Assembly (NCBI GenBank): GCA_965232515.1
Contig: CBDDPY010000002.1
Location: 3,552,001 to 3,616,000 of the forward strand
Reading direction: 5' to 3'
DNA length: 64,000 nt
DNA from: Alphaproteobacteria bacterium
GTDB lineage: Bacteria > Pseudomonadota > Alphaproteobacteria > GCA-2731375
This document shows, one piece after another, positions 1-9,675 of the stretch (position 1 is the first letter of the stretch; every line of letters begins with the position of its first letter). Position numbers and translations under genes: made by a program. The notes under the pieces are model-generated. The model worked only from the letters and a program-made list of their open reading frames with translations, was not told the DNA's origin and searched no databases.

Positions 1-511
1 GGACCTCGATCTTTCGGGCCTGTGGCGCTCGGTCTGCCGCGCCGCGCTCGATTCCTGCCGCGTGCTGGTCATCATTTCGGTTGCCGGCATTTTCCTTTGG
101 ATCATCGCCAATATGGGGCTGGCGCGGGCGCTGGCCGGCGCGGTCACCGCGTTCTCGGACGATCCGACGGTCGTGCTCGCCGCCATTGCCGTGCTGCTGC
201 TCTGCCTCGGCACGGTGCTGGAACCGGTGACGCTGCTGGTCGTGGTGGTGCCGATCCTGACGCCGGCGGCGCTCGCCGTCGGCATCGACGTTGTGCAGCT
301 CGGCGTGGTCGCGGTGCTGGCGACGCTGATCGGCCTGATCACGCCGCCGGTTGGTTTCCTGATCTATCTGTCAGCCGCGCAGGCCGAAGCCCGCGCCGCC
401 GCCGTGGTCGCGGAGCTGACGCCGTTCCTGGGCGCGCTGCTGCTGCTGCTCGCCTGTCTGGTTCTGTTCCCGAGCTGGACGCTCTGGCTGCCCGGACTGT
501 TTTTCCCCTAG
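1..511 (+). CDS. TRAP transporter large permease (DctM family), 5'-truncated by the window edge
   Basis: Hydrophobic ORF with the DctM C-terminal signature (GID..QLGVV...IGLITPPVG...LFPSWTLWLP); stop TAG at 509-511. Confidence 0.85.
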   Translation, partial: DLDLSGLWRSVCRAALDSCRVLVIISVAGIFLWIIANMGLARALAGAVTAFSDDPTVVLAAIAVLLLCLGTVLEPVTLLVVVVPILTPAALAVGIDVVQLGVVAVLATLIGLITPPVGFLIYLSAAQAEARAAAVVAELTPFLGALLLLLACLVLFPSWTLWLPGLFFP

Positions 512-1110
512 CTCGCTTGACGATAGAACAGCGCCGTCAGCGTCGGCTGATCCGGCAGTCCGGTCACCGGCAGGCCCTTGGCCCGCTGATAAGCCTCCAG
601 CGCCCATTTCGTGTCGCGATCGTAGGTACCGGTCGGCGGTACCGAATAGTGTCCCAGTTCGGCCAGTTTCTCCTGGGTGCGCCGGATCGTGTCCGAATAC
701 AGTTTGAAGACCTTGTCGCCGACCGGAATCTCGACAACCGCCGACTGTTCGACCACCCGCTGCTCGTGCAGTGTCCGCACCATGACGATAACGGCGCGCT
801 GGAAGTCGAGCTCGGGATTTTCGCGGCAGAACTTGCCGAGGGAGGAAAAGATCACGGCCGATCCCTGCCAGGGCAGCAGATCGTAGGTCTCGCGCACGTA
901 GAGGTTGGATGCGCTGATATAGCCGTCGATCCAGCCGGCATAGATGAGCGCCTTGCCCTCCTTGTTATCGACAACCTGCACGAAATCCTTGCAGGTCGAA
1001 CGGCCGACGCCCTTGGAGGCGAACTTGCCCGATGCATCGACGGCGAGCACGCTGCCGCTCCACACGCCGGCGCACAATGCCAACACACCGCAAAGAACCC
1101 ATCGCATCAT
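508..1110 (-). CDS. Secreted protein: HdeA/HdeB-like N-terminal domain plus C-terminal peptidoglycan-binding (PG_binding_1-like) domain, paralog 1
   Basis: Signal peptide; STCKDF...WIDGY...FCRENP two-Cys pattern; C-terminal TQEKLAELGHY...PTGTYDRDTKWALEAYQRAKGLPVTGLPDQPTL matches PG-binding helices. Confidence 0.8.
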   Translation of the reverse strand: MMRWVLCGVLALCAGVWSGSVLAVDASGKFASKGVGRSTCKDFVQVVDNKEGKALIYAGWIDGYISASNLYVRETYDLLPWQGSAVIFSSLGKFCRENPELDFQRAVIVMVRTLHEQRVVEQSAVVEIPVGDKVFKLYSDTIRRTQEKLAELGHYSVPPTGTYDRDTKWALEAYQRAKGLPVTGLPDQPTLTALFYRQAS

Positions 1111-1282
1111 TTTCGCTCCGCGTTACCGATCGGGCGCCGGACATCTGGCCGACGGCCCCGGCACACTATCCCGCTATTTTGGCGCCGGCAAACCATGGTC
1201 CGGCATTGCGGCGGAATTGAGGTTTGCGCCGCCGCGCAAGGTGTTGAAGATGGCGGCGGAACAAACGGAGGAGCGAGCGACC

Positions 1283-2047
1283 ATGACCGGCGACAACCAT
1301 CCACGCCTGCAGGGCAAGACCGCGATCGTCACCGGCGGCGCGCGCAACATCGGCCGGGCCATCTCGCTCGCGCTCGCCGCCGATGGCGCAAACGTGGTGG
1401 TGAACGCCCGAGGCGACGCCGAAGCGGCCGAAGCGGTCGCGGCCGAGGTGAATAAGGCCGGCGGCAACGGCCTCGCCCATGTTGCCGACGTGACAGACGG
1501 GCATGCGGTGCGGGCCATGGTCGACGCGACGGTCGGCGCCTTCGGCCGGATCGACATCCTGGTCAGCAATGCGGCGGTGCGGCGGCAGCAGCCGTTCCTG
1601 GAGATCTCTTACGACGACTGGCGTGACATCATCGCCGTGCCGCTGGACGGCGCCTTCCACTGCGCCCAGGCTTGCGTGCCGCACATGATCGAGGCCGGCG
1701 GCGGCGCGATCGTCACGATCGGCGGCATCTCGACCCATATCAGCACCCCGAACCGGGCCCACGTCAGCGCCGCGAAGTCGGGCCTGGTCGGCCTGACGCG
1801 GGCGCTGGCCGTGGAGCTGGCGCCGCACAACATCCGCGCCAACTGCGTCTCGCCGGGCTCGATCGATACGGTACGCGGCGCGTCTGCGGGCGCCCGACCG
1901 GCGCGCATGGGCGGCGCCGAGATCCCGGCCGGCCGTCTGGGCCGGCCGGAAGAAATCGCCGGCATGGTCCGGCATCTCTGTCTACCGGAGGCGGCCTACA
2001 TTACCGGCCAGACGATCCATGTGAACGGCGGCATGTTCCTGACCTGA
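1283..2047 (+). CDS. SDR family oxidoreductase (FabG-like)
   Basis: TGGARNIG NAD(P)-binding motif, SNAA, HVSAAK in place of YxxxK, ITGQTIHVNGG; GGAGGAG RBS before ATG 1283. Confidence 0.9.
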   Translation: MTGDNHPRLQGKTAIVTGGARNIGRAISLALAADGANVVVNARGDAEAAEAVAAEVNKAGGNGLAHVADVTDGHAVRAMVDATVGAFGRIDILVSNAAVRRQQPFLEISYDDWRDIIAVPLDGAFHCAQACVPHMIEAGGGAIVTIGGISTHISTPNRAHVSAAKSGLVGLTRALAVELAPHNIRANCVSPGSIDTVRGASAGARPARMGGAEIPAGRLGRPEEIAGMVRHLCLPEAAYITGQTIHVNGGMFLT

Positions 2048-2063
2048 CCCTGGCGCGCCATAT

Positions 2064-2084
2064 ATGGTTAACGAATTGCTAACC
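2064..2084. promoter_or_regulatory. CtrA-like box (TTAA-N7-CTAA, TTAACCAT on minus strand)
   Basis: ATGGTTAACGAATTGCTAACC read directly; one mismatch to the TTAA-N7-TTAA consensus. Confidence 0.5.
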
Positions 2085-2152
2085 AATCTGCCCAAGCATG
2101 CGCAGCCAGCGGCGCTGCCGCGAAATGCAATCGAACCGAGAGGAAGAGTGGG

Positions 2153-2371
2153 TTGTCGGATCAAACGGTCGTCACATTTCCCGTTCACGGATTTTCCGGC
2201 GGTCATTTCGAGTACTGGCTTAGCTGGGCGGAATGCGAGCTGTCCATCCTCGGCTTCGACATTCGACAAGTCGATTTCGAGTGGCGCGCCGCCTTCGAGC
2301 GCGGACTGAAGCCAGAGCAGGCCGCTGCCGCCGCCGCCGCGCTGGTGCAGTCGGCACAAACTGTCGACTGA
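2153..2371 (+). CDS. Small hypothetical protein (72 aa)
   Basis: TTG start with GAGAGGAAGAG RBS; protein-like composition (W..AFERGLKPEQAA). Confidence 0.6.
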   Translation: MSDQTVVTFPVHGFSGGHFEYWLSWAECELSILGFDIRQVDFEWRAAFERGLKPEQAAAAAAALVQSAQTVD

Positions 2372-2817
2372 CGATCGACAAATACAGTCCCGCATCCCGT
2401 TCTTGGCACGAAAGCGGTTCTTTTGCGTTCATGCCGCTTCGGTGGGGTTTGTCGTGTTCCGGTTGAAAAACTGGACCTTCGAAGATATCGAAGTCGCTTT
2501 TTTCTCTAAATGCGCAAATTCTTCCTTGCAGTTATTGCTATAACAGCCTAAAATTCTTCGAGTTAAAGTAGTGATTTAAGTAGAAATATTGTTATGTCTG
2601 GTTTGTTCGCTTTCACGATCCAGTGGCGGACGGACAAACCCCCAAAATCAAAGACAAAAATTCGCATGGCGTGCAGTCGTTGTCTGGAGCGACTGAGTTT
2701 TGATCGGGATTGATTGCACGCAGCCAGGCTTAGCGTCGGAGCACAGCGACGTCTGAGCTCCCTTCGCAAGTGCCGAACCGCCAACGGTTGCGAGCGCATC
2801 GAACGGTGATGCATGCG

Positions 2818-3045
2818 ATGACCATCGAAGAAGCACTAAGCACGCACGAGGATTCCCTGATGGCCATACCCGGCGTCCAAGGCGTCGGGATCGGCGAACG
2901 ACAGGGCATACCGGTCATACAGGTCTTTGTTGACGCCAAAACTCCCGACAAAGCGCAGTTCGTCTCTCAGATTCCGACTGAGATCGAGGGCTACACAGTG
3001 GTCGTTGATGAGATCGGCACCATCAGACCGCTGCACGCGGACTGA
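2818..3045 (+). CDS. Small protein resembling the N-terminal (pro)domain of the downstream Nal1-like protease
   Basis: GVQGVGIG...VIQVFV...IPTEIEGYTVVVDEIG aligns by eye with NVVGVGLG...VLALV...VPEKINDLPTDVLAIG of the next ORF; start could be 2809 or 2818. Confidence 0.75.
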   Translation: MTIEEALSTHEDSLMAIPGVQGVGIGERQGIPVIQVFVDAKTPDKAQFVSQIPTEIEGYTVVVDEIGTIRPLHAD

Positions 3046-3062
3046 GAGAGGGAGAATTGATC

Positions 3063-4094
3063 ATGAGTATCGACGAAACGAAAATGGTTCTGGAACCCAA
3101 GACCGCGACCAGCAGTAACGTCGTCAAAGCACAGGGTAAAGCGGTCGAGGACATCATGCAGGTCGAGATACCGAAGGCCAATGTTGTCGGCGTCGGCCTG
3201 GGCGTCAAATGGTCAAATGGCGAGCCGACGGGAAAGCCCGCCGTACTCGCGCTGGTGTCACATAAGCTCGACCCGGCCGACCTGGCACCAGAGGACATGG
3301 TGCCCGAGAAGATCAATGATCTGCCAACGGATGTTCTGGCCATCGGCGAACCGTTCGCCGGTCAAGCAGAACCAATAGAAGTGGGTATCGAGGCGCTTGC
3401 CCGTCGGACGCGGCCTGCCTCAGGCGGTTACAGCGTAGCGCACGTGGCCGTTACCGCCGGTACGATCGGCACTTGCGTCTACGATCTTCAGGGCACCGGC
3501 AGCAACCCGGCCGGCATACCCGGGCGCTACTACATTCTCAGTAACAATCACGTGCTGGCCAACAGCAACAACGCCAGCATAGGCGACACGATCCTGCAAC
3601 CCGGCCCCTTCGACGGCGGCGTCGATCCGTCGGATCGGATTGCACGACTGCACCGGTTCGTGCCGATTACCTTTTCGCCCCCCGTGGATCGTCGATTTCA
3701 CCGCAACCTCGTCGACGCGGCGGTGGCGGAAGGTCAGTTCCACGATCTGAAACGTGAGATCCATTGGCTCGGCCACCTACAGGGATGGATCCCGCGAAGC
3801 GGCGTGAATGTCGGCATGCCGGTTCACAAGACCGGGCGGACAACCAGCTACAGCACCGGCCGTATTACGACCGTCAACGCCACGGTCGACGTCAATTACG
3901 GCGGTGGCAGAGTGGCGCGTTTCCGGGATCAGATCATCACGACAAACATGTCGGCCGGCGGAGATTCCGGTTCAATCGTCGCCGAACGCCTCAGCAACAA
4001 GGCGGTCGGATTGCTGTTTGCAGGTTCGCCCGTCGCGACAATCCTGAATCAGATACAGCATGTCCGCGCGCTTTTGCGGGTAGAGATCGTCTGA
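3063..4094 (+). CDS. Nal1-like trypsin-fold (clan PA) serine protease
   Basis: Triad motifs SNNHVL (His), LVDAAVA (Asp), GGDSGS (Ser); QPGPFDGG, KTGRTT and VGLLFAGS typical of bacterial Nal1-like proteases; GAGGGAG RBS; no signal peptide. Confidence 0.85.
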   Translation: MSIDETKMVLEPKTATSSNVVKAQGKAVEDIMQVEIPKANVVGVGLGVKWSNGEPTGKPAVLALVSHKLDPADLAPEDMVPEKINDLPTDVLAIGEPFAGQAEPIEVGIEALARRTRPASGGYSVAHVAVTAGTIGTCVYDLQGTGSNPAGIPGRYYILSNNHVLANSNNASIGDTILQPGPFDGGVDPSDRIARLHRFVPITFSPPVDRRFHRNLVDAAVAEGQFHDLKREIHWLGHLQGWIPRSGVNVGMPVHKTGRTTSYSTGRITTVNATVDVNYGGGRVARFRDQIITTNMSAGGDSGSIVAERLSNKAVGLLFAGSPVATILNQIQHVRALLRVEIV

Positions 4095-4262
4095 CGGAAC
4101 ACCCCTTCTCGATCTAAACAACGCACGCAGCAAGGGTCTGCCGCACGCCGTCCAAGCCGATCGGCGGGGCGCGGCAGCCCTTCCTTTGTTCGACATCGGC
4201 AATATCTTCGCGCAAACCCGCGCGCGACCACAGCCATTTGCCGCAGAATCCCGGCGCGATGG

Positions 4263-4850
4263 TCAATAAAACAGCGATTTCAGCGTGTTCTGATCTGGCC
4301 AGCCAGTGGCGGGAAGGTTCCGGTCGCGCTGGTATTCGATCAGCGCGGCTCGCGTGACCTCGTCGAACTCGCCCGTCGGTCGCACGCCGTCATGGCCGAG
4401 TTCCGCAAGCTGGATTTGCAGCTTTTCGATCGTCGTTCGGTAGAGCCGAACGCGCTTGCCGCCGGTTGGGATCTCGATCAAATCGGACTGCTCGGTCAGA
4501 CGCTGGGACTCGAGGCTGCGGCGCATGGCCGCCACGGCCTGGAAGAACCGCAGCTCGGGATTGGCCCGGCAATATTGATCGAGTGACAGCAGCACCATAT
4601 TGGGCTGTTGCCAGGGCAGGAGGTCGTAGGTCTGATCGTTGACCTCGTTCATCGCGGTCAGGTAGCCGTGCACCCAACCGGCAAACAGCAGCGCTTCCCT
4701 GCTCTCGCTCTGCAGCGCCTCGACGAACCGCGTGCAACTGGCGAGGCCGGCGCCCTTCAGGGCGAAACTGCCGGCCTTATCGGCGGCGATCGCGCTCGTC
4801 GCGAGCGCCATTGCGCTCAACACGGCGAATAACCCGCGAAGCCCGGTCAT
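4263..4850 (-). CDS. Secreted HdeA-like plus peptidoglycan-binding domain protein, paralog 2
   Basis: Signal peptide; GSFALKGAGLASC, AGWVHGY, TYDLLPWQ, YCRANPEL shared with 508..1110; C-terminal PG-binding helices. Confidence 0.8.
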   Translation of the reverse strand: MTGLRGLFAVLSAMALATSAIAADKAGSFALKGAGLASCTRFVEALQSESREALLFAGWVHGYLTAMNEVNDQTYDLLPWQQPNMVLLSLDQYCRANPELRFFQAVAAMRRSLESQRLTEQSDLIEIPTGGKRVRLYRTTIEKLQIQLAELGHDGVRPTGEFDEVTRAALIEYQRDRNLPATGWPDQNTLKSLFY

Positions 4851-4913
4851 GCCCGAACGACCCCCATTGTTGCTGCATCGGCGCGAACCTCGGGAAGCGT
4901 AGGGCGTCGCCGA

Positions 4914-7346
4914 TCAGGCGGCAAGGCGACGGCGGCGTCGTTGAAACCAGAATCCGCCGAGCGCCGCCAGGAACAATGCGAGGCTGCCAGGTTCCGGCAC
5001 GGCCGCGACCGACGTCGGGAAGGTGAAGCGGGCCAGGATCGGATCATGGTCGCTGGCCTGATCGCGGAAGCCGGTGTTGGTGTGGACGATGTCGAATTCG
5101 GGCATCGCCATATCGAGCAGGTTGGCGCTGACCAGCAGGTGGTCGAGCTGCTGCGAATTGCCTTCGAAGATAAAGGAATAGATGTCGGTCGGGTCGAGGC
5201 CGCTTTCGGTCACCAGGTTGAACAGCACCGGATCGATCAGGCCGCCGGCCAACAGCTCGAGCGGCGTATAGAACTGGAATTCGTTCAGATCGCCCAGCAC
5301 GATCAGGTTCATGTCGGGATCCGCGGCTAAAAGCTGGTCGACGAAGTCGTTGACGAACTGGGCCTGCGCCTCGCGCTCGTCGACGCTGCCGTTGGCCGGC
5401 GGCTGGGTGGTCCCGAACAGCGGATCGCTGCCGCCCTTCGACGAGAAGTGGTTGTTGATGACCGTGATTTCCTCGCCATTGAACAGGAACGTCGCCAGCA
5501 CCGGCTTGCGCGTGCTCTCAAACGCGTCGTCGCCGTCCGTATCCTCGAGGCGCTCGACCGAACCGGGCACCAGCTCGACGCGGTTCGGATTGTAGAGGTA
5601 GCCGACACGGATATTGCCGCCGGGCTGACCGCCGTCCTGGCCGTCCTCGGGCGGCACGTCAATGAACTCGTACTGCGGTCCGCCGGCATCGACGATGGCC
5701 TGGATCAGGGTTTCGTAGGTCAGGCTGGCGCTGGTCTCGCCGTCGTTGGTCGAGCCCGTGTTGTCCTGCACTTCCTGTAGGCCAATGATATCTGGCCGGT
5801 TCAGGTTGTTGACGATCTGCTGCGCCAAGTCGGCGAACTGACCGTTGGCGATATCGGTGCTGCCGTCCTGGTCGTTCGGGTCCAGGTTCAGCACGTTGAA
5901 GCTGGCGACCGTCACCTGATCCGACGTGCCGACGAGATCGCTGGTCTCGCTGACGAGACCGCCGTCGGTCGCCTGCACCGGATCGAGGGGCCGGATGAAA
6001 TAGTCGTTGAAACCGAAATCGACGACGCCGGTGATGTCGCCCAGGCCGTCGCCGACATTGGTGTCCGGCGCGCTGCCGGTATCCAGATCGACATCGATCA
6101 GCAAACGCTCGGGATTGAGGTCGGCGTCCAGCGGATTGTTCGGGTCGGGATCGGCGCTGATGGTGATGCCGCCGCGGCTGTTCACCGTGGTGGTGCCGTC
6201 GCCGTTGTTGGCGATGGCGTAGACCTGGCCGAACCGGTTGGTGTTGTCGACGGCCTGCGCGTCCTCGACCGTGACCAGCATGCCCTCCAGGCTCTCGTAG
6301 AAGTCGCGGCCATGGTTGTCGGGATCGAACACGGCACCGCCGGTATCGTCGATGATCTCGGTCGGCGGTTGCCGGCCGCCGATGCCGACCAAGGTCGGAG
6401 CGATCGCGTTGTTGCTGCTGGTGGTGTCGATCTGGCTGACCTGATCGATCTCAGTCGAGCCGAATTCTTCGTCGACCGTGCCGACGACCGTCACGCCGTC
6501 GCCCACCGCGACGGTGGGCGCGCCGCCGGTGAAGACGAAGATGCCGTCAGACGTGGCGGTGTCGCCGTCGCCCTGCTGGTCCTGCAGATAGAAGCCGTCG
6601 TTGGCGAGCGCCGTCACCACGCCCGAGGTCTCGACCTGCTGGCCCTCGAACGGCGAGACGTGCTGGGCGCCTTGAATTTCGAATATCGCCAGCTGCTGCG
6701 GCGGGATCGGCGTATCGAAAACCTGATTGGTGTTCGTGGCGCCGGCGGTCGCCGCCGGTTGCGCGGTCCAGATGAAGTCGCTTGCCTGCAGGCCCTGGCC
6801 GCTCAGCTGCAGAGAGGCGCCGGCCGGCGTGCCGCCGCTTTCCGAGACGCCGATGTCGGCGCTCGACATGCCGGCCGCCGGTCCGTTGTTGGCGGTGAAC
6901 GAGCCCTCGTAGCTGAGGAACTGAATGACGCTGTTCGTGTTGTCGACCAGCGCGAAGCCGTCGGCGGGGCCGTTTTGCAGGCCGTTGGTATTGTAGTTCA
7001 CCGTCGCGAAGCCGAATCCGCTGCCGGTATCGTCGCCAAGAATGCCGCTGAACACGTCGGATCCGGCGGGATTTGGCCCCGGGCTGGTATAGACGTTCCC
7101 GTTGTTGCCGTTGTAGCGGACGATGCTCCAGCCGGTTATGTCCGTGCCCGCCGTGCCGACGATTTCGATGAACTCGCCGCTGTCCGTGCCGTTGTTGTCG
7201 TAGTGGAACTCGTTGACGAAGACCACGGCCTGAGCCTGGCCGCTCGCCAGCACAAGGGCGAGCGCCGATGTGCCGGAGATCAGACGGCGACGCCAGCGGG
7301 GCGACAGCTCGGACGAACGAATCTGGGCGGTGTCTTTATGGAACAT
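4914..7346 (-). CDS. ExeM/NucH-type extracellular nuclease (LTD + OB-fold + EEP domain) with PEP-CTERM sorting signal
   Basis: VNEFHYDN (LTD), IFEIQG/GVVTA (OB), SFNVLN, LQEVQD, NHFSSK, GDLN, LDH, SDHDP (EEP); C-terminal VPEPGSLALFLAALGGFWFQRRRRR; alternative start 7361. Confidence 0.9.
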   Translation of the reverse strand: MFHKDTAQIRSSELSPRWRRRLISGTSALALVLASGQAQAVVFVNEFHYDNNGTDSGEFIEIVGTAGTDITGWSIVRYNGNNGNVYTSPGPNPAGSDVFSGILGDDTGSGFGFATVNYNTNGLQNGPADGFALVDNTNSVIQFLSYEGSFTANNGPAAGMSSADIGVSESGGTPAGASLQLSGQGLQASDFIWTAQPAATAGATNTNQVFDTPIPPQQLAIFEIQGAQHVSPFEGQQVETSGVVTALANDGFYLQDQQGDGDTATSDGIFVFTGGAPTVAVGDGVTVVGTVDEEFGSTEIDQVSQIDTTSSNNAIAPTLVGIGGRQPPTEIIDDTGGAVFDPDNHGRDFYESLEGMLVTVEDAQAVDNTNRFGQVYAIANNGDGTTTVNSRGGITISADPDPNNPLDADLNPERLLIDVDLDTGSAPDTNVGDGLGDITGVVDFGFNDYFIRPLDPVQATDGGLVSETSDLVGTSDQVTVASFNVLNLDPNDQDGSTDIANGQFADLAQQIVNNLNRPDIIGLQEVQDNTGSTNDGETSASLTYETLIQAIVDAGGPQYEFIDVPPEDGQDGGQPGGNIRVGYLYNPNRVELVPGSVERLEDTDGDDAFESTRKPVLATFLFNGEEITVINNHFSSKGGSDPLFGTTQPPANGSVDEREAQAQFVNDFVDQLLAADPDMNLIVLGDLNEFQFYTPLELLAGGLIDPVLFNLVTESGLDPTDIYSFIFEGNSQQLDHLLVSANLLDMAMPEFDIVHTNTGFRDQASDHDPILARFTFPTSVAAVPEPGSLALFLAALGGFWFQRRRRRLAA

Positions 7347-7448
7347 CGGGGCCCCCTGCATACGGTTGTTGACCGCAGCGCCGCTTCGACCCTGCCGGGC
7401 CGTGCGATCTTCGCTTGCGTCTCGTTGATCGGACGCTAGTGGGGAAAT

Positions 7449-7508
7449 GTTACAGCCGCTTGACGCGGCGACGACGGTTCCGCTCCGGAGGTCACGAAAT
7501 AGTCACGA
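7449..7508. promoter_or_regulatory. Putative Pho-box-like 11-bp-period repeats upstream of the nuclease
   Basis: Minus strand CCGTCGT-N4-GCGTCAA-N4-CTGTAAC (7449-7477); plus strand GTCACGA-AATA-GTCACGA (7491-7508). Confidence 0.35.
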
Positions 7509-7528
7509 GCGCCGGCCCAGTGAAACGT

Positions 7529-8365
7529 TCAGCCGATAAGGCCGGCGAGCCGGTCGAGACGCGGCAGGACATCGTCGCCCGCCGCCGACGGCAGCAGGAA
7601 GATGCCGCGCGCGACGCCGGCATCGGCGTAGCGCTTGATGTCGTCGCCGTCCGGCGCGACGCCGAACACCGTCACCTGGAAGGTCTCGGGGTCGCGGTTC
7701 GCTTCCGCCGCCATCTGCCGGAAGCGTGGCATCACGTCGAGGATGTCCAGCGACCGGCCGCCGATCGGCATCCAGCCGTCGCCATACTCGATGGCCCGGC
7801 GCGCGCCGTGCGGGAAGCCGCCGCCGACGATAACGGGCGGGTGCGGCTTCTGCACCGGCTTGGGCCAGGTCATCATCGGCTCGAAATCGACGAAGTCGCC
7901 GTGGTACTCAGGCTGCTTCTCGGTCCAGATCGCCTTGATGGCGGCGATGCGCTCGCGCATCAGGCTGAACCGGGTCTTGAAGTCGGTGCCGTGGTCGGCC
8001 ATTTCCTCGGCATTCCAGCCGCCGCCAACGCCCATGATCACCCGGCCCTTGGAGATCTGGTCGAGCGTGGAGATTTCCTTGGCGAGCTGGATCGGATCGC
8101 GCTGCACGACCAGGCAGATCCCCGTGCAGAGCTTCAGATCAGTCGTCACGGTCGCGGCCGAGGCCAGCGAGACCAGGGGATCGAAGCAATCGTAGTACGG
8201 CTTCGGCAGCTCGCCGCCGCCGGGCCAGGGCGATTTCCGCGAGGCCGGGATATGCGAATGCTCCGGCAGCCACAGCGACTCGAAGCCCCGCTCTTCCAGC
8301 GCCATCGCAAGATCGGCGGGCGAAATCGAATAGTCCGTCGGAAATATGGTGACGCCGAATTTCAT
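7529..8365 (-). CDS. LLM class (probably F420-dependent, Rv2161c-like) oxidoreductase
   Basis: GFESLWLPEHSHIP, DPLVSL, LAKEISTLDQISKGR, GWNAEE, PKPVQKPHPP, YGDGWMP. Confidence 0.88.
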   Translation of the reverse strand: MKFGVTIFPTDYSISPADLAMALEERGFESLWLPEHSHIPASRKSPWPGGGELPKPYYDCFDPLVSLASAATVTTDLKLCTGICLVVQRDPIQLAKEISTLDQISKGRVIMGVGGGWNAEEMADHGTDFKTRFSLMRERIAAIKAIWTEKQPEYHGDFVDFEPMMTWPKPVQKPHPPVIVGGGFPHGARRAIEYGDGWMPIGGRSLDILDVMPRFRQMAAEANRDPETFQVTVFGVAPDGDDIKRYADAGVARGIFLLPSAAGDDVLPRLDRLAGLIG

Positions 8366-8402
8366 CCTGCCGCCTCGAATTTTCCGGAAAATCGTCGGCG
8401 GC

Positions 8403-8476
8403 TGGAGCGGGCGAAGGGAATCGAACCCTCGTCGTAAGCTTGGGAAGCTTCTGCTCTACCATTGAGCTACGCCCGC
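8403..8476 (-). tRNA. tRNA-Gly (anticodon CCC)
   Basis: Reverse complement GCGGGCGTAGCTCAATGGTAGAGCAGAAGCTTCCCAAGCTTACGACGAGGGTTCGATTCCCTTCGCCCGCTCCA; 74 nt cloverleaf with encoded CCA. Confidence 0.97.
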
Positions 8477-8712
8477 GCGACGCCGATAGACAACGCGTGT
8501 TTCGCAATTTGATACGATATCCGCCGCCGATCAATGGTTTATACTCGGGCCAAAACAAGAATCGCCGTGGGGAGAGGCGGCATCAAACCTGGATCACGCG
8601 TCCGCGAGGATGCGGGGTAAAGCGTTGACATCGTTGGTTCGACGCCACACGTTCGCTGCGGTGCAGCAGGTCGGATGCTGCTGTGGGGGCTGATAGGGGA
8701 AGGTAGTCGTTT

Positions 8713-9675
8713 ATGAGCAATGTCAGCGCCGTCGAGGACGTCACACGTCTCGACGCGACCAAGTTTCGTGATCCCGATACCACCGCCGACGGCCAGAAAC
8801 GTGCCTCCGTGGCTCTGAACGGGCTCAGAACCCTGTGGTTCAACACCGGCACGCTGTGCAACCTGACCTGCACCAACTGCTACATCGAATCCAGTCCGAC
8901 CAACGACCGCCTGTCCTATATCTCGGCCGCCGAAGTGGCGGCGCTGCTGGATGAGCTCGATCGCGACTGGCAGGCCGACGAGATCGGCTTCACCGGCGGC
9001 GAGCCGTTCATGAATCCCGAAATCATCCCCATGCTGGAGGATTCGCTCAGCCGCGGCTACGACGTCCTGGTCCTGACCAATGCGATGCGGCCGATGCTGA
9101 AGCTGAAGGCGCCGCTCTTGGACCTGAAGGAACGCTACGGCGACAAACTCTGCCTCCGCGTCTCCATCGACCATTATTCGAAGGAGCTGCACGAGGTCGA
9201 ACGCGGCGCGCATGCTTGGGATCGCATGATCGAAGGCCTGACCTGGTTGTCCGAGAACGGTTTCCACATCAACGCTGCCGGCCGGACATATTGGCCAGAG
9301 AGCGAGGATCGGCTGCGCGAGGGCTATGGCCGGACCTTCAAGGCGCACGGCATCCGTATCGACCATAACGACCCCGCCGCCATGGTGTTGTTTCCCGAAA
9401 TGGACGAGACCGTGGATGTGCCCGAGATCACCGAAGCCTGCTGGGGTATCCTCAACGTCAATCCCGACGACATGATGTGCGCCAGCCAGCGCATGGTGGT
9501 GAAGCGCAAGGGCGAGGACAAACCGAAGGTCGTGCCCTGCACGCTGCTGCCCTACGACACCGAGTTCGAGATGGGCACAACGCTGGCCGAGGCCGGCGGC
9601 GACGTAAAGCTCAACCATCCGCATTGCGCCAAGTTCTGCGTCCTGGGCGGCGGCTCCTGCAGCGTCGGCGACTGA
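8713..9675 (+). CDS. Radical SAM protein with Cys-rich C-terminus (ArsS-like clade)
   Basis: CNLTCTNC (CxxxCxxC), FTGGEP, C-terminal MC...VPC...HPHCAKFC...GSC. Confidence 0.88.
   Translation: MSNVSAVEDVTRLDATKFRDPDTTADGQKRASVALNGLRTLWFNTGTLCNLTCTNCYIESSPTNDRLSYISAAEVAALLDELDRDWQADEIGFTGGEPFMNPEIIPMLEDSLSRGYDVLVLTNAMRPMLKLKAPLLDLKERYGDKLCLRVSIDHYSKELHEVERGAHAWDRMIEGLTWLSENGFHINAAGRTYWPESEDRLREGYGRTFKAHGIRIDHNDPAAMVLFPEMDETVDVPEITEACWGILNVNPDDMMCASQRMVVKRKGEDKPKVVPCTLLPYDTEFEMGTTLAEAGGDVKLNHPHCAKFCVLGGGSCSVGD

Follow-up and report, generated by a model that had tools for sequence, protein, structure and literature searches.

Why should the gene for an apparently cytoplasmic serine protease be preceded by a second, very short gene that resembles the protease's own N-terminal domain? 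The question arises in a 64,000-nucleotide stretch of an alphaproteobacterial genome (assembly GCA_965232515.1, contig CBDDPY010000002.1, positions 3,552,001 to 3,616,000; hereafter "the window"), where a 75-residue open reading frame (ORF) stands directly upstream of a trypsin-like protease related to rice NARROW LEAF 1 (NAL1). An earlier note, made from the letters alone, had proposed a two-gene module in which the solo domain acts in trans on the protease. The reading that we favour, and to which we assign a probability of roughly one half, is that of a two-gene operon encoding a cytoplasmic NAL1-like serine protease together with a dedicated pro-region-like cap, possibly also a folding or assembly helper, that would act in trans. 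The elements on which this reading draws are given below, with positions numbered from the first letter of the window.

2818..3045, forward strand: small gene of 75 amino acids (aa), ATG start to stop; solo paralogue of the protease N-terminal domain (N-domain) and a divergent NAL1_N domain
3016..3042, forward strand: codons of the C-terminal tail, residues 67-75 (GTIRPLHAD), predicted from the complex model and from family conservation to lie in the protease active-site cleft
3046..3062, forward strand: intergenic gap of 17 nt, from the stop codon to ATG 3063, containing GAGAGGGAG, which is Shine-Dalgarno-like
3063..4094, forward strand: NAL1-like S1 serine protease of 343 aa, ATG to stop
3174..3362, forward strand: protease N-domain, residues 38-100, the counterpart of the NAL1 ATP-binding domain by profile alignment to NAL1
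3363..3425, forward strand: variable linker, residues 101-121, joining the N-domain to the protease domain; modelled with low confidence and a site of insertions in relatives
3426..4091, forward strand: catalytic domain of chymotrypsin fold, residues 122-343, with invariant columns in a 74-sequence alignment
3549-3551, 3714-3716 and 3966-3968, forward strand: codons of the triad residues His163, Asp218 and Ser302, checked on the sequence

The coordinates and the 17-bp spacing given in the earlier note were confirmed on the sequence. The longest ORF possible for the small gene would run to 91 aa from GTG 2770; we place its start at ATG 2818, because the N-termini of 75 homologues align there. 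Translated from ATG 3063 the protease has the same length as the database protein P0002 (343 aa), with TTG 3057 as an alternative start. Judged by eye, neither protein carries a hydrophobic N-terminal segment, and the protease, which begins with MSIDETKMVLEPKTATSS and shows no signal segment there, looks cytoplasmic, in agreement with the earlier claim that it lacks a signal peptide. Both proteins are called 'hypothetical protein' in every named database source, except for one UniRef entry, 'Serine protease'.

The likeness between the small protein and the protease N-domain is invisible to pairwise comparison: BLASTP gave no alignment of the two at E ≤ 100, and the resemblance was therefore tested with profiles. 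A profile of the small family matched this protease at E = 1.7e-12 over residues 40-99 (counted from TTG 3057) and the N-domains of 80/80 related proteases (E = 2.6e-17 to 1.5e-5), while a profile of the protease N-domain, built without the window sequences, matched the small ORF at E = 1e-4. When the two families were compared directly by hhalign, they aligned over 59 columns with 98.2% probability (E = 5.8e-14). Even the single protease sequence from the window matched small ORFs at 50 of 80 loci (E ≤ 1e-3), always via residues ~20-104. Pfam NAL1_N is matched at E ≤ 1 by 58 of the 75 small-family members; the window copy is not among them, and it reaches no Pfam model. As the profile tests and hhalign agree at family level despite the blank BLASTP result, we accept what the earlier note had proposed: the 75-aa protein is a paralogue of the protease N-domain that has diverged and stands alone.

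An AlphaFold2 (AF2) model of the lone small protein (predicted local distance difference test score, pLDDT, of 85.6) consists of a helix (residues 3-15), strands at 20-28, 31-39 and 59-66, and a disordered tail (69-75), and in the models of both the small protein and the protease N-domain the elements succeed one another as helix, strand, strand, short helix and strand. Searched against the Protein Data Bank (PDB) with Foldseek, the small-protein model returned nothing at E ≤ 1e-3; the top rows were C-terminal domains of metal transporters, and a NAL1 chain (8hau_D) appeared only at rank 38. In a wide search with VIA-align the best match was a designed protein (Z 5.3), and NAL1 (Z 3.9) stood level with many unrelated alpha/beta domains. 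A word-indexed database search with the lone small protein yielded a single near-identical match; an exhaustive search yielded 793 representative clusters at E ≤ 1e-3, and the small-family profile matches 655 database proteins. Some relatives carry the solo domain in tandem, proteins of 255 aa and of 915 aa each holding three stretches (among P0122, P0126, P0227 and P0260). In P0227 a solo-type domain stands at the C-terminus of a protease (Nal1_C followed by NAL1_N), so that fused versions of the downstream arrangement exist; with P0227 excepted, the long or tandem relatives (P0122, P0126, P0260 and others) showed no informative Pfam architecture.

The protease has the intact triad attributed to it before, with His163, Asp218 and Ser302 invariant in 74/74 aligned proteases and a GGDSGS motif that aligns with the GDSG of the Glu-specific protease 1hpg and of NAL1. 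Pfam places NAL1_N on residues 42-87 (E = 9.9e-5, 22.5 bits, below the 27-bit cut-off) and Trypsin_2 below threshold (E = 1.5e-3), finds no match to Nal1_C at E ≤ 1, and lists PF25608 in the precomputed annotation of some close relatives. A profile of the protease family reached rice NAL1 chains at E = 6.6e-7 to 7.6e-6, the best match running from protease positions 39-137 to NAL1 residues 112-218 and setting the N-domain against NAL1 residues 112-171. Among other solved chains the same profile reached the Glu-specific protease 1hpg (9e-8), 2sfa (2.7e-6), streptogrisin B (2e-4) and alpha-lytic protease (3.6e-3), the closest solved sequences to the catalytic half being the Glu-specific protease, the streptogrisins and alpha-lytic protease. 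A Foldseek search with the modelled protease (overall pLDDT 85.6, falling under 50 at residues 103-121) gave NAL1 chains at all of the listed ranks 1-34 (E = 1.3e-13 to 4.9e-10; query-normalised TM-score, TMq, 0.57-0.65), the top match (E = 1.3e-13, TMq 0.64) extending over both the N-domain and the protease domain. Next came streptogrisin B, Lysobacter L1/L5, alpha-lytic protease and the Glu-specific protease (E = 6.6e-9 to 7.6e-7; target-normalised score, TMt, 0.66-0.79). Identity to NAL1 in the structural alignments is 14-18%. By profile and by modelled fold, the protease is NAL1-like, as the earlier note had named it. Its family is large: the matches exceed 7,234 database clusters (90% identity), a single scan of species-representative genomes gave 402 relatives, and proteases from distant phyla share 50-77% identity.

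According to the available excerpts of PMC12012508, residues 89-172 of NAL1 form an adenosine triphosphate (ATP)-binding domain that contacts the protease domain of the neighbouring subunit in the trimer; ATP-Mg is contacted by R120, R122, K123, K139, V140, Q149, L151, D166 and V167; and a hexameric cage is needed for activity. R120, K139, D166 and V167 align with K49, K68, D90 and V91 of the protease described here, which are invariant in 74/74 proteases, and position 51 is basic in 46/74. At the ATP-contact positions the small family has K/R28 in 61/75, K41 in 60/75 and D62 in 64/75 members, the window copy having R28, K41 and V62; in the hhalign alignment, the small family is without six residues of the loop that bears NAL1 R122 and K123. 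Towards its end the protease N-domain carries a conserved G95-Y-P-F-A99-G100 motif, which aligns with the small-protein tail and is followed by the variable linker, the site of long insertions in protease relatives.

Rice NAL1 (PDB 7Y77, 8HAS/8HAT/8HAU, 8PME-8PN2; excerpts of PMC12012508) is thus the best fold match over both domains, and it has in common with the bacterial protease the His/Asp/Ser triad and, by eye, the lack of a signal peptide. Unlike NAL1, however, the bacterial enzyme is without the first 88 residues, which hold the hexamer-stapling strand, and without the long C-terminal extension: strand 48-53, said in the same excerpts to link two trimers, is absent, the alignment starting at NAL1 residue 112. 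It also falls below the Pfam NAL1_N cut-off and leaves Nal1_C unmatched. Finally, no separate small partner of NAL1 is described in the excerpts of PMC12012508, whereas the bacterial protease has one.

How regular this partnership is was assessed by a survey of gene linkage, a step suggested in the earlier note, over the best 80 of 402 confirmed protease relatives, themselves drawn from 579 pattern matches in species-representative genomes. The small gene adjoins the protease in 75/80 loci spanning many phyla, upstream on the same strand in 73 and downstream in two (L028 and L076), and the two-gene module is accordingly conserved. Across those 75 loci the small ORF keeps its aligned start and its length, and in 56 of the 73 upstream cases it ends between -31 and +40 nt from where the alignment places the start of the protease. 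Pairwise identities among small proteins follow those among proteases (Spearman 0.59 over 69 paired loci), in part through common ancestry. The family is present on 30 plasmid records, among them a Bacillus cereus plasmid on which an annotated 76-aa hypothetical gene lies 13 nt upstream of an 'S1 family peptidase', and it is scarce in phage records (3/50,697).

Clustering of neighbouring ORFs across the loci revealed no conserved third gene. ORF clusters found in 12-22 loci were rejected as extra partners, being shadow ORFs within the protease gene, as were the largest true neighbour clusters (9 loci each), which reflect synteny of close relatives and a generic two-component-signalling cluster. 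The nearest flanking ORFs, of which 141 of 144 were scanned with Pfam, encode metabolic enzymes, transporters and regulators that vary by locus.

Several loci depart from the simple pair. Two solo copies precede the protease at ten cyanobacterial loci (L023, L027, L033, L035, L036, L038, L042, L046, L047 and L050), one copy being 110-119 aa long with an N-terminal extension and the other 77 aa; the proteases of these loci have an insertion of ~25 residues in the linker. At L035, L047 and L050 the next gene 3' encodes a protein with Metallophos and SIR2_2 domains that matches PADLOC PDC-S60. On Clostridium plasmids (for example Clostridium novyi pCN2, L093), distant protease relatives of ~34% identity form multi-paralogue arrays, with up to 25 matching places per record, beside a tubulin-like gene and with no small partner annotated between them. 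The genome under study itself has a second, distant NAL1-like protease (L082 1369-2460; G000:C2:2240158-2241486; 42% identity, Nal1_C at E = 4.6e-7), and a 74-aa ORF 13 nt 3' of it (L082 2473-2697) does not detectably resemble either the small family or the protease beside it.

How might the two proteins meet? Each of three runs that modelled the small protein with the protease reached an interaction prediction score from aligned errors (ipSAE) of 0.90, whereas three controls scored 0.01 at best; the mark reached by the pair is reached by 116/157 solved complexes and by 2/215 mismatched pairs, a calibration that applies only roughly with custom alignments. The pLDDT of the partner was 92 or higher, and no less than 99% of the contacts were common to the runs. 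In the predicted complex, strand 21-27 of the small protein pairs antiparallel with the protease hairpin 269-280, and the tail (residues 65-75) crosses the catalytic cleft, where residue 72 contacts Ser302 together with residues 299-301 and 318-320, residue 71 contacts His163, and residues 69-71 contact 277-279 and 320. The predicted interface, 108-110 contacts in size with the folded body included, covers His163, Asp218, residues 297-302 and 318-327 and the hairpin 269-280. So placed, the tail would resemble the P4-P1 residues of a substrate. Within the family it follows the pattern G-x-[VI]-x-A-Q (G67 in 74/75, V/I69 in 64/75, A71 in 54/75 and Q72 in 48/75), and the C-terminus lies 0-3 residues past position 72 in 57/75 members and exactly at 72 in 11/75. 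A tail that is disordered when alone, conserved in pattern and ended near residue 72 would therefore suit a product-like plug. The cis tail of the protease's own N-domain could also use the same or a neighbouring active site, since that domain ends in the aligned, conserved G95-G100 motif and then in a variable linker of low confidence.

On the reading that we favour, the partner would dock onto the catalytic domain of the protease, its first beta-strand extending the beta-hairpin of the C-terminal barrel and its short C-terminal tail entering the substrate cleft, with residue 72 at the S1 position beside Ser302. From its separate gene it may thereby cap the active site, in the manner of an alpha-lytic pro-region, until it is removed or trimmed, and it may also aid the folding or assembly of the enzyme. 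Binding, occlusion of the active site, a folding role and a signal for release are what we infer for the cap. Among the roles in trans that the earlier note had listed (inhibitor, chaperone or co-assembling adaptor), the predicted complex favours a pro-region-like partner that occludes the active site; the in-trans role stands as a prediction only. In broader terms, the modelling suggests that a widespread and unstudied protease probably has, in the small protein, its dedicated cap or helper.

The alpha-lytic pro-region, to which we liken the partner, is also a potent inhibitor of its enzyme. The likeness, in silico only, lies in a tail that enters the active site and a strand that pairs with the C-terminal barrel; Sauter and colleagues (1998) reportedly found this same arrangement in the complex of alpha-lytic protease with its pro-region, the strands of the C-terminal domain being contacted and the tail lying in the active site. 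Alpha-lytic protease and streptogrisin B (PDB 4PRO, 2PRO) are also the enzymes whose catalytic domain is closest to ours in sequence and, after NAL1, in fold. Enzymes of this clade depend on their pro-region to fold, whether it acts in cis or in trans (PMC2289522; bioRxiv 10.1101/2020.08.30.274340), and the latter source gives the streptogrisin B pro-region as 76 residues, compared with 75 aa for the small protein. Members of the alpha-lytic clade are secreted, and their pro-region is fused and cleaved off, whereas the enzyme described here looks cytoplasmic and retains its fused domain, with the second copy as a separate gene.

Free-standing propeptide-like inhibitors are already known in other protease clans, in the form of yeast proteinase B inhibitor 2 for subtilases and CTLA-2-type proteins for papain-like proteases. 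Each is a small homologue of a protease's own N-terminal domain, has a gene to itself and presumably binds the mature enzyme. To our knowledge, such inhibitors belong to the subtilase and papain clans and are not operon partners of their targets, and the targets do not keep the domain; here, in contrast, an S1 protease is the target, and bacteria encode the partner alongside it. What we rate as new within this known kind is that the pro-like/ATP-binding domain of a cytoplasmic S1 protease has a solo copy encoded in the same operon. Our literature search, outside which lay subscription journals and supplements, found no paper on bacterial NAL1 homologues or on the small partner.

Several observations weigh against a pro-region-like cap in trans. 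The equivalent domain of NAL1 is not a plug, as it binds ATP and holds the trimer together, and because the protease retains its own N-domain, a second copy could serve assembly. A six-frame search extending up to 4 kb each side found no small gene at 4 of the 79 informative loci (L013, L031, L058 and L071; the sequence of L068 ends at the protease, which makes it uninformative), and the partner is therefore not always needed nearby. Mutual information between tail positions 69-72 and protease columns, computed over 69 pairs, is dominated by variable, lineage-linked columns and speaks neither for nor against the interface. The binding mode comes from one program's model, and fold-level memory in that model is possible, because solved structures exist both of alpha-lytic protease with its pro-region and of NAL1 oligomers. 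The small protein moreover has no demonstrable likeness to the alpha-lytic pro-region, since the VIA-align match 2pro_A (Z 4.3, root-mean-square deviation 4.7 Å, 64 aligned residues, rank 12) is tied with many unrelated alpha/beta domains and lies, like 4hlb_A (Z 3.7), within noise; and the 13 families that members of the small family (75 proteins) match at E ≤ 1 do not include the Pfam pro-domain family.

We therefore weighed the cap against other explanations. A possible though tentative alternative takes the small protein for a subunit, structural or regulatory, in a hetero-oligomeric cage like that of NAL1, where it would take or contest the surface that docks the neighbour's N-domain, set the oligomeric state (trimer, hexamer or capped monomer) and perhaps sense nucleotide. 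Such a role would accord with the ATP-Mg binding and inter-subunit contact of the homologous NAL1 domain and with the need for a hexamer (excerpts of PMC12012508), with the retention of K49, K68, D90 and V91 in 74/74 proteases and, for the most part, of K/R28, K41 and D62 in the small family, and with the superposition of the protease model on NAL1 over both domains (TMq 0.64); two solo copies, as at the 10 cyanobacterial loci, or tandem arrays would likewise suit assembly parts. However, the complex model puts the tail in the catalytic cleft and not on a distal surface, the six residues of the R122/K123 loop are missing from the small family, and the window copy has Val at the D62 position. 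We regard as distinctly improbable that the small protein is instead a dedicated substrate or precursor, cut after residue 72 to release or expose something without any regulatory role: the modelled tail does lie substrate-like in the cleft, with residues 73-75 on the primed side and conservation at residues 69, 71 and 72 (modelled P4, P2 and P1), but the folded body forms an extensive interface (108-110 contacts), and with 0-3 residues past position 72 in 57/75 members and none in 11/75, no sizeable product would be released. That resemblance and adjacency arose by chance, or persist as a decaying, functionless duplication, is already contradicted by the conservation data. BLASTP is blind to the pairwise similarity and the window protein reaches no Pfam model, as this explanation would have it, yet aligned start and length are kept at 75/80 loci in many phyla, the family counts 793 representative clusters and 655 profile matches, and the model is confident (pLDDT 85.6); we give it next to no weight.

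The earlier note had also raised a protease/antitoxin pair or a defence or death switch, in which the protease would kill the cell or arrest growth and a labile small antidote would be lost on infection or stress. In favour of such a toxin-antitoxin-like or anti-phage switch one may cite the self-contained layout of a small gene followed by an enzyme gene, the patchy distribution of the protease (with this query, 0/32 other sampled genomes of the same family, and one full-length match and one fragment among 28 genomes of the class outside that family), the high identity of 50-77% across phyla, the copies on 30 plasmid records, the position of the module in a 5.5-kb segment that is missing at this site from a same-genus genome and a guanine-cytosine (GC) content below that of the flanks. 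Against it, PADLOC has no family for either protein at E ≤ 1 and NCBIfam has none for either, and 3/50,697 phage records carry the family. Among flanking proteins, PADLOC matches at E ≤ 1e-5 occur in just 12/141 and form no recurrent pattern: about six look specific (DRT DUF1848; PDC-S60 three times, from related cyanobacterial loci; PDC-S59; a weak LmuB), and several are generic (sigma-54 activators, GlgB, TPR). Enrichment in defence islands was thus looked for among the flanking proteins and not found, the flanking Pfam families being mainly metabolic or regulatory, and we consider the switch unlikely.

NAL1 is a protease that controls yield traits in rice, and the family described here is its bacterial counterpart, large and spread across distant phyla. 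A co-encoded solo copy of the domain that in NAL1 binds ATP and keeps the cage together offers a direct handle on how such proteases stay inactive or assemble. Should the partner prove to be a pro-region acting in trans, it would connect the ATP-binding domain of NAL1 with the classic alpha-lytic foldase/inhibitor and provide a natural two-gene system for chaperone-assisted folding and for the control of a cytoplasmic S1 protease. A more far-reaching idea, to which we give little credence, is that the NAL1 ATP-binding domain and the solo protein both descend from an alpha-lytic-type pro-region, the split gene being a mobile two-gene zymogen: a cytoplasmic cage protease would be plugged by a nucleotide-sensing cap, and a drop in ATP, or some other nucleotide signal, would free the enzyme of its cap and set off proteolysis, for instance as a switch into dormancy or death. 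Were this true, the evolutionary origin and the hidden regulatory logic of the plant yield protease would be revealed.

The surroundings of the two genes in the window include two further features.

2400..2720, no strand: AT-rich non-coding spacer 5' of the module, GC 0.44
4123..4181, no strand: terminator-like hairpins between the protease and the convergent gene 4263-4850, from a consensus scan only

The AT-rich spacer reported before was confirmed: its GC of 0.44 compares with 0.57 and 0.60 for the two genes, 0.71 for the upstream short-chain dehydrogenase/reductase (SDR) gene and 0.66 for the 64-kb window. In a same-genus genome that is 81% complete (G001), a single contig (C562) carries the SDR orthologue followed directly by the orthologue of a luciferase-like gene (window 7529-8365), so that window 2048-7528 (5.5 kb) is missing at that site. 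Besides the protease pair and the AT-rich spacer, this segment carries a 72-aa ORF, a PG_binding_1 gene and an 815-aa gene, the last of which has a 65%-identical match on another G001 contig. The spacer, which the earlier note had called foreign-looking, the patchy distribution and the missing segment fit horizontal acquisition without proving it.

The hairpins 3' of the protease lie on the reverse strand at 4148-4123 and on the forward strand at 4166-4181, and the spacer has two more on the forward strand (2477-2493 and 2674-2695); all are consensus matches only, and the scan found 5 terminator-like sites in 2000-4400 where 2.8 ± 1.7 were expected. The consensus scan of 2000-4400 gave no sigma-70-like promoter match. 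Contigs from three RNA sequencing (RNA-seq) libraries cover the genes. In library X4 one contig (2765-3264) crosses the gene junction, and the spacer is covered too (2300-2757); in library X7 one 2,285-nt contig of ~93% identity spans 2586-4400. Such contigs prove neither transcription nor a single transcript. No reads from a raw poly-A RNA run (X21) fell on the region, but this is no test. RNA-seq contigs from two studies contain window 2300-4400 at 93-100% identity, which suggests that the organism or its close relatives live with the sequenced hosts.

Just 5' of the AT-rich spacer, the 72-aa ORF (2153-2371, forward strand) has an alanine run, matches no family in Pfam, NCBIfam or PADLOC, and may not be a gene. 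Scanned with Rfam, positions 1-9000 held no family except one transfer RNA gene (8406-8476, reverse strand; RF00005, 68.6 bits), just past the luciferase-like gene. Two paralogous proteins of ~200 aa with 48% identity (508-1110 and 4263-4850, both reverse strand) bracket the SDR gene and the protease pair; they have signal-peptide-like N-termini, judged by eye, an HdeA-like region and a C-terminal PG_binding_1 domain. The 815-aa protein (4914-7361, reverse strand) combines a lamin-tail domain with an endonuclease/exonuclease/phosphatase domain and ends in a C-terminal PEP-CTERM sorting motif.

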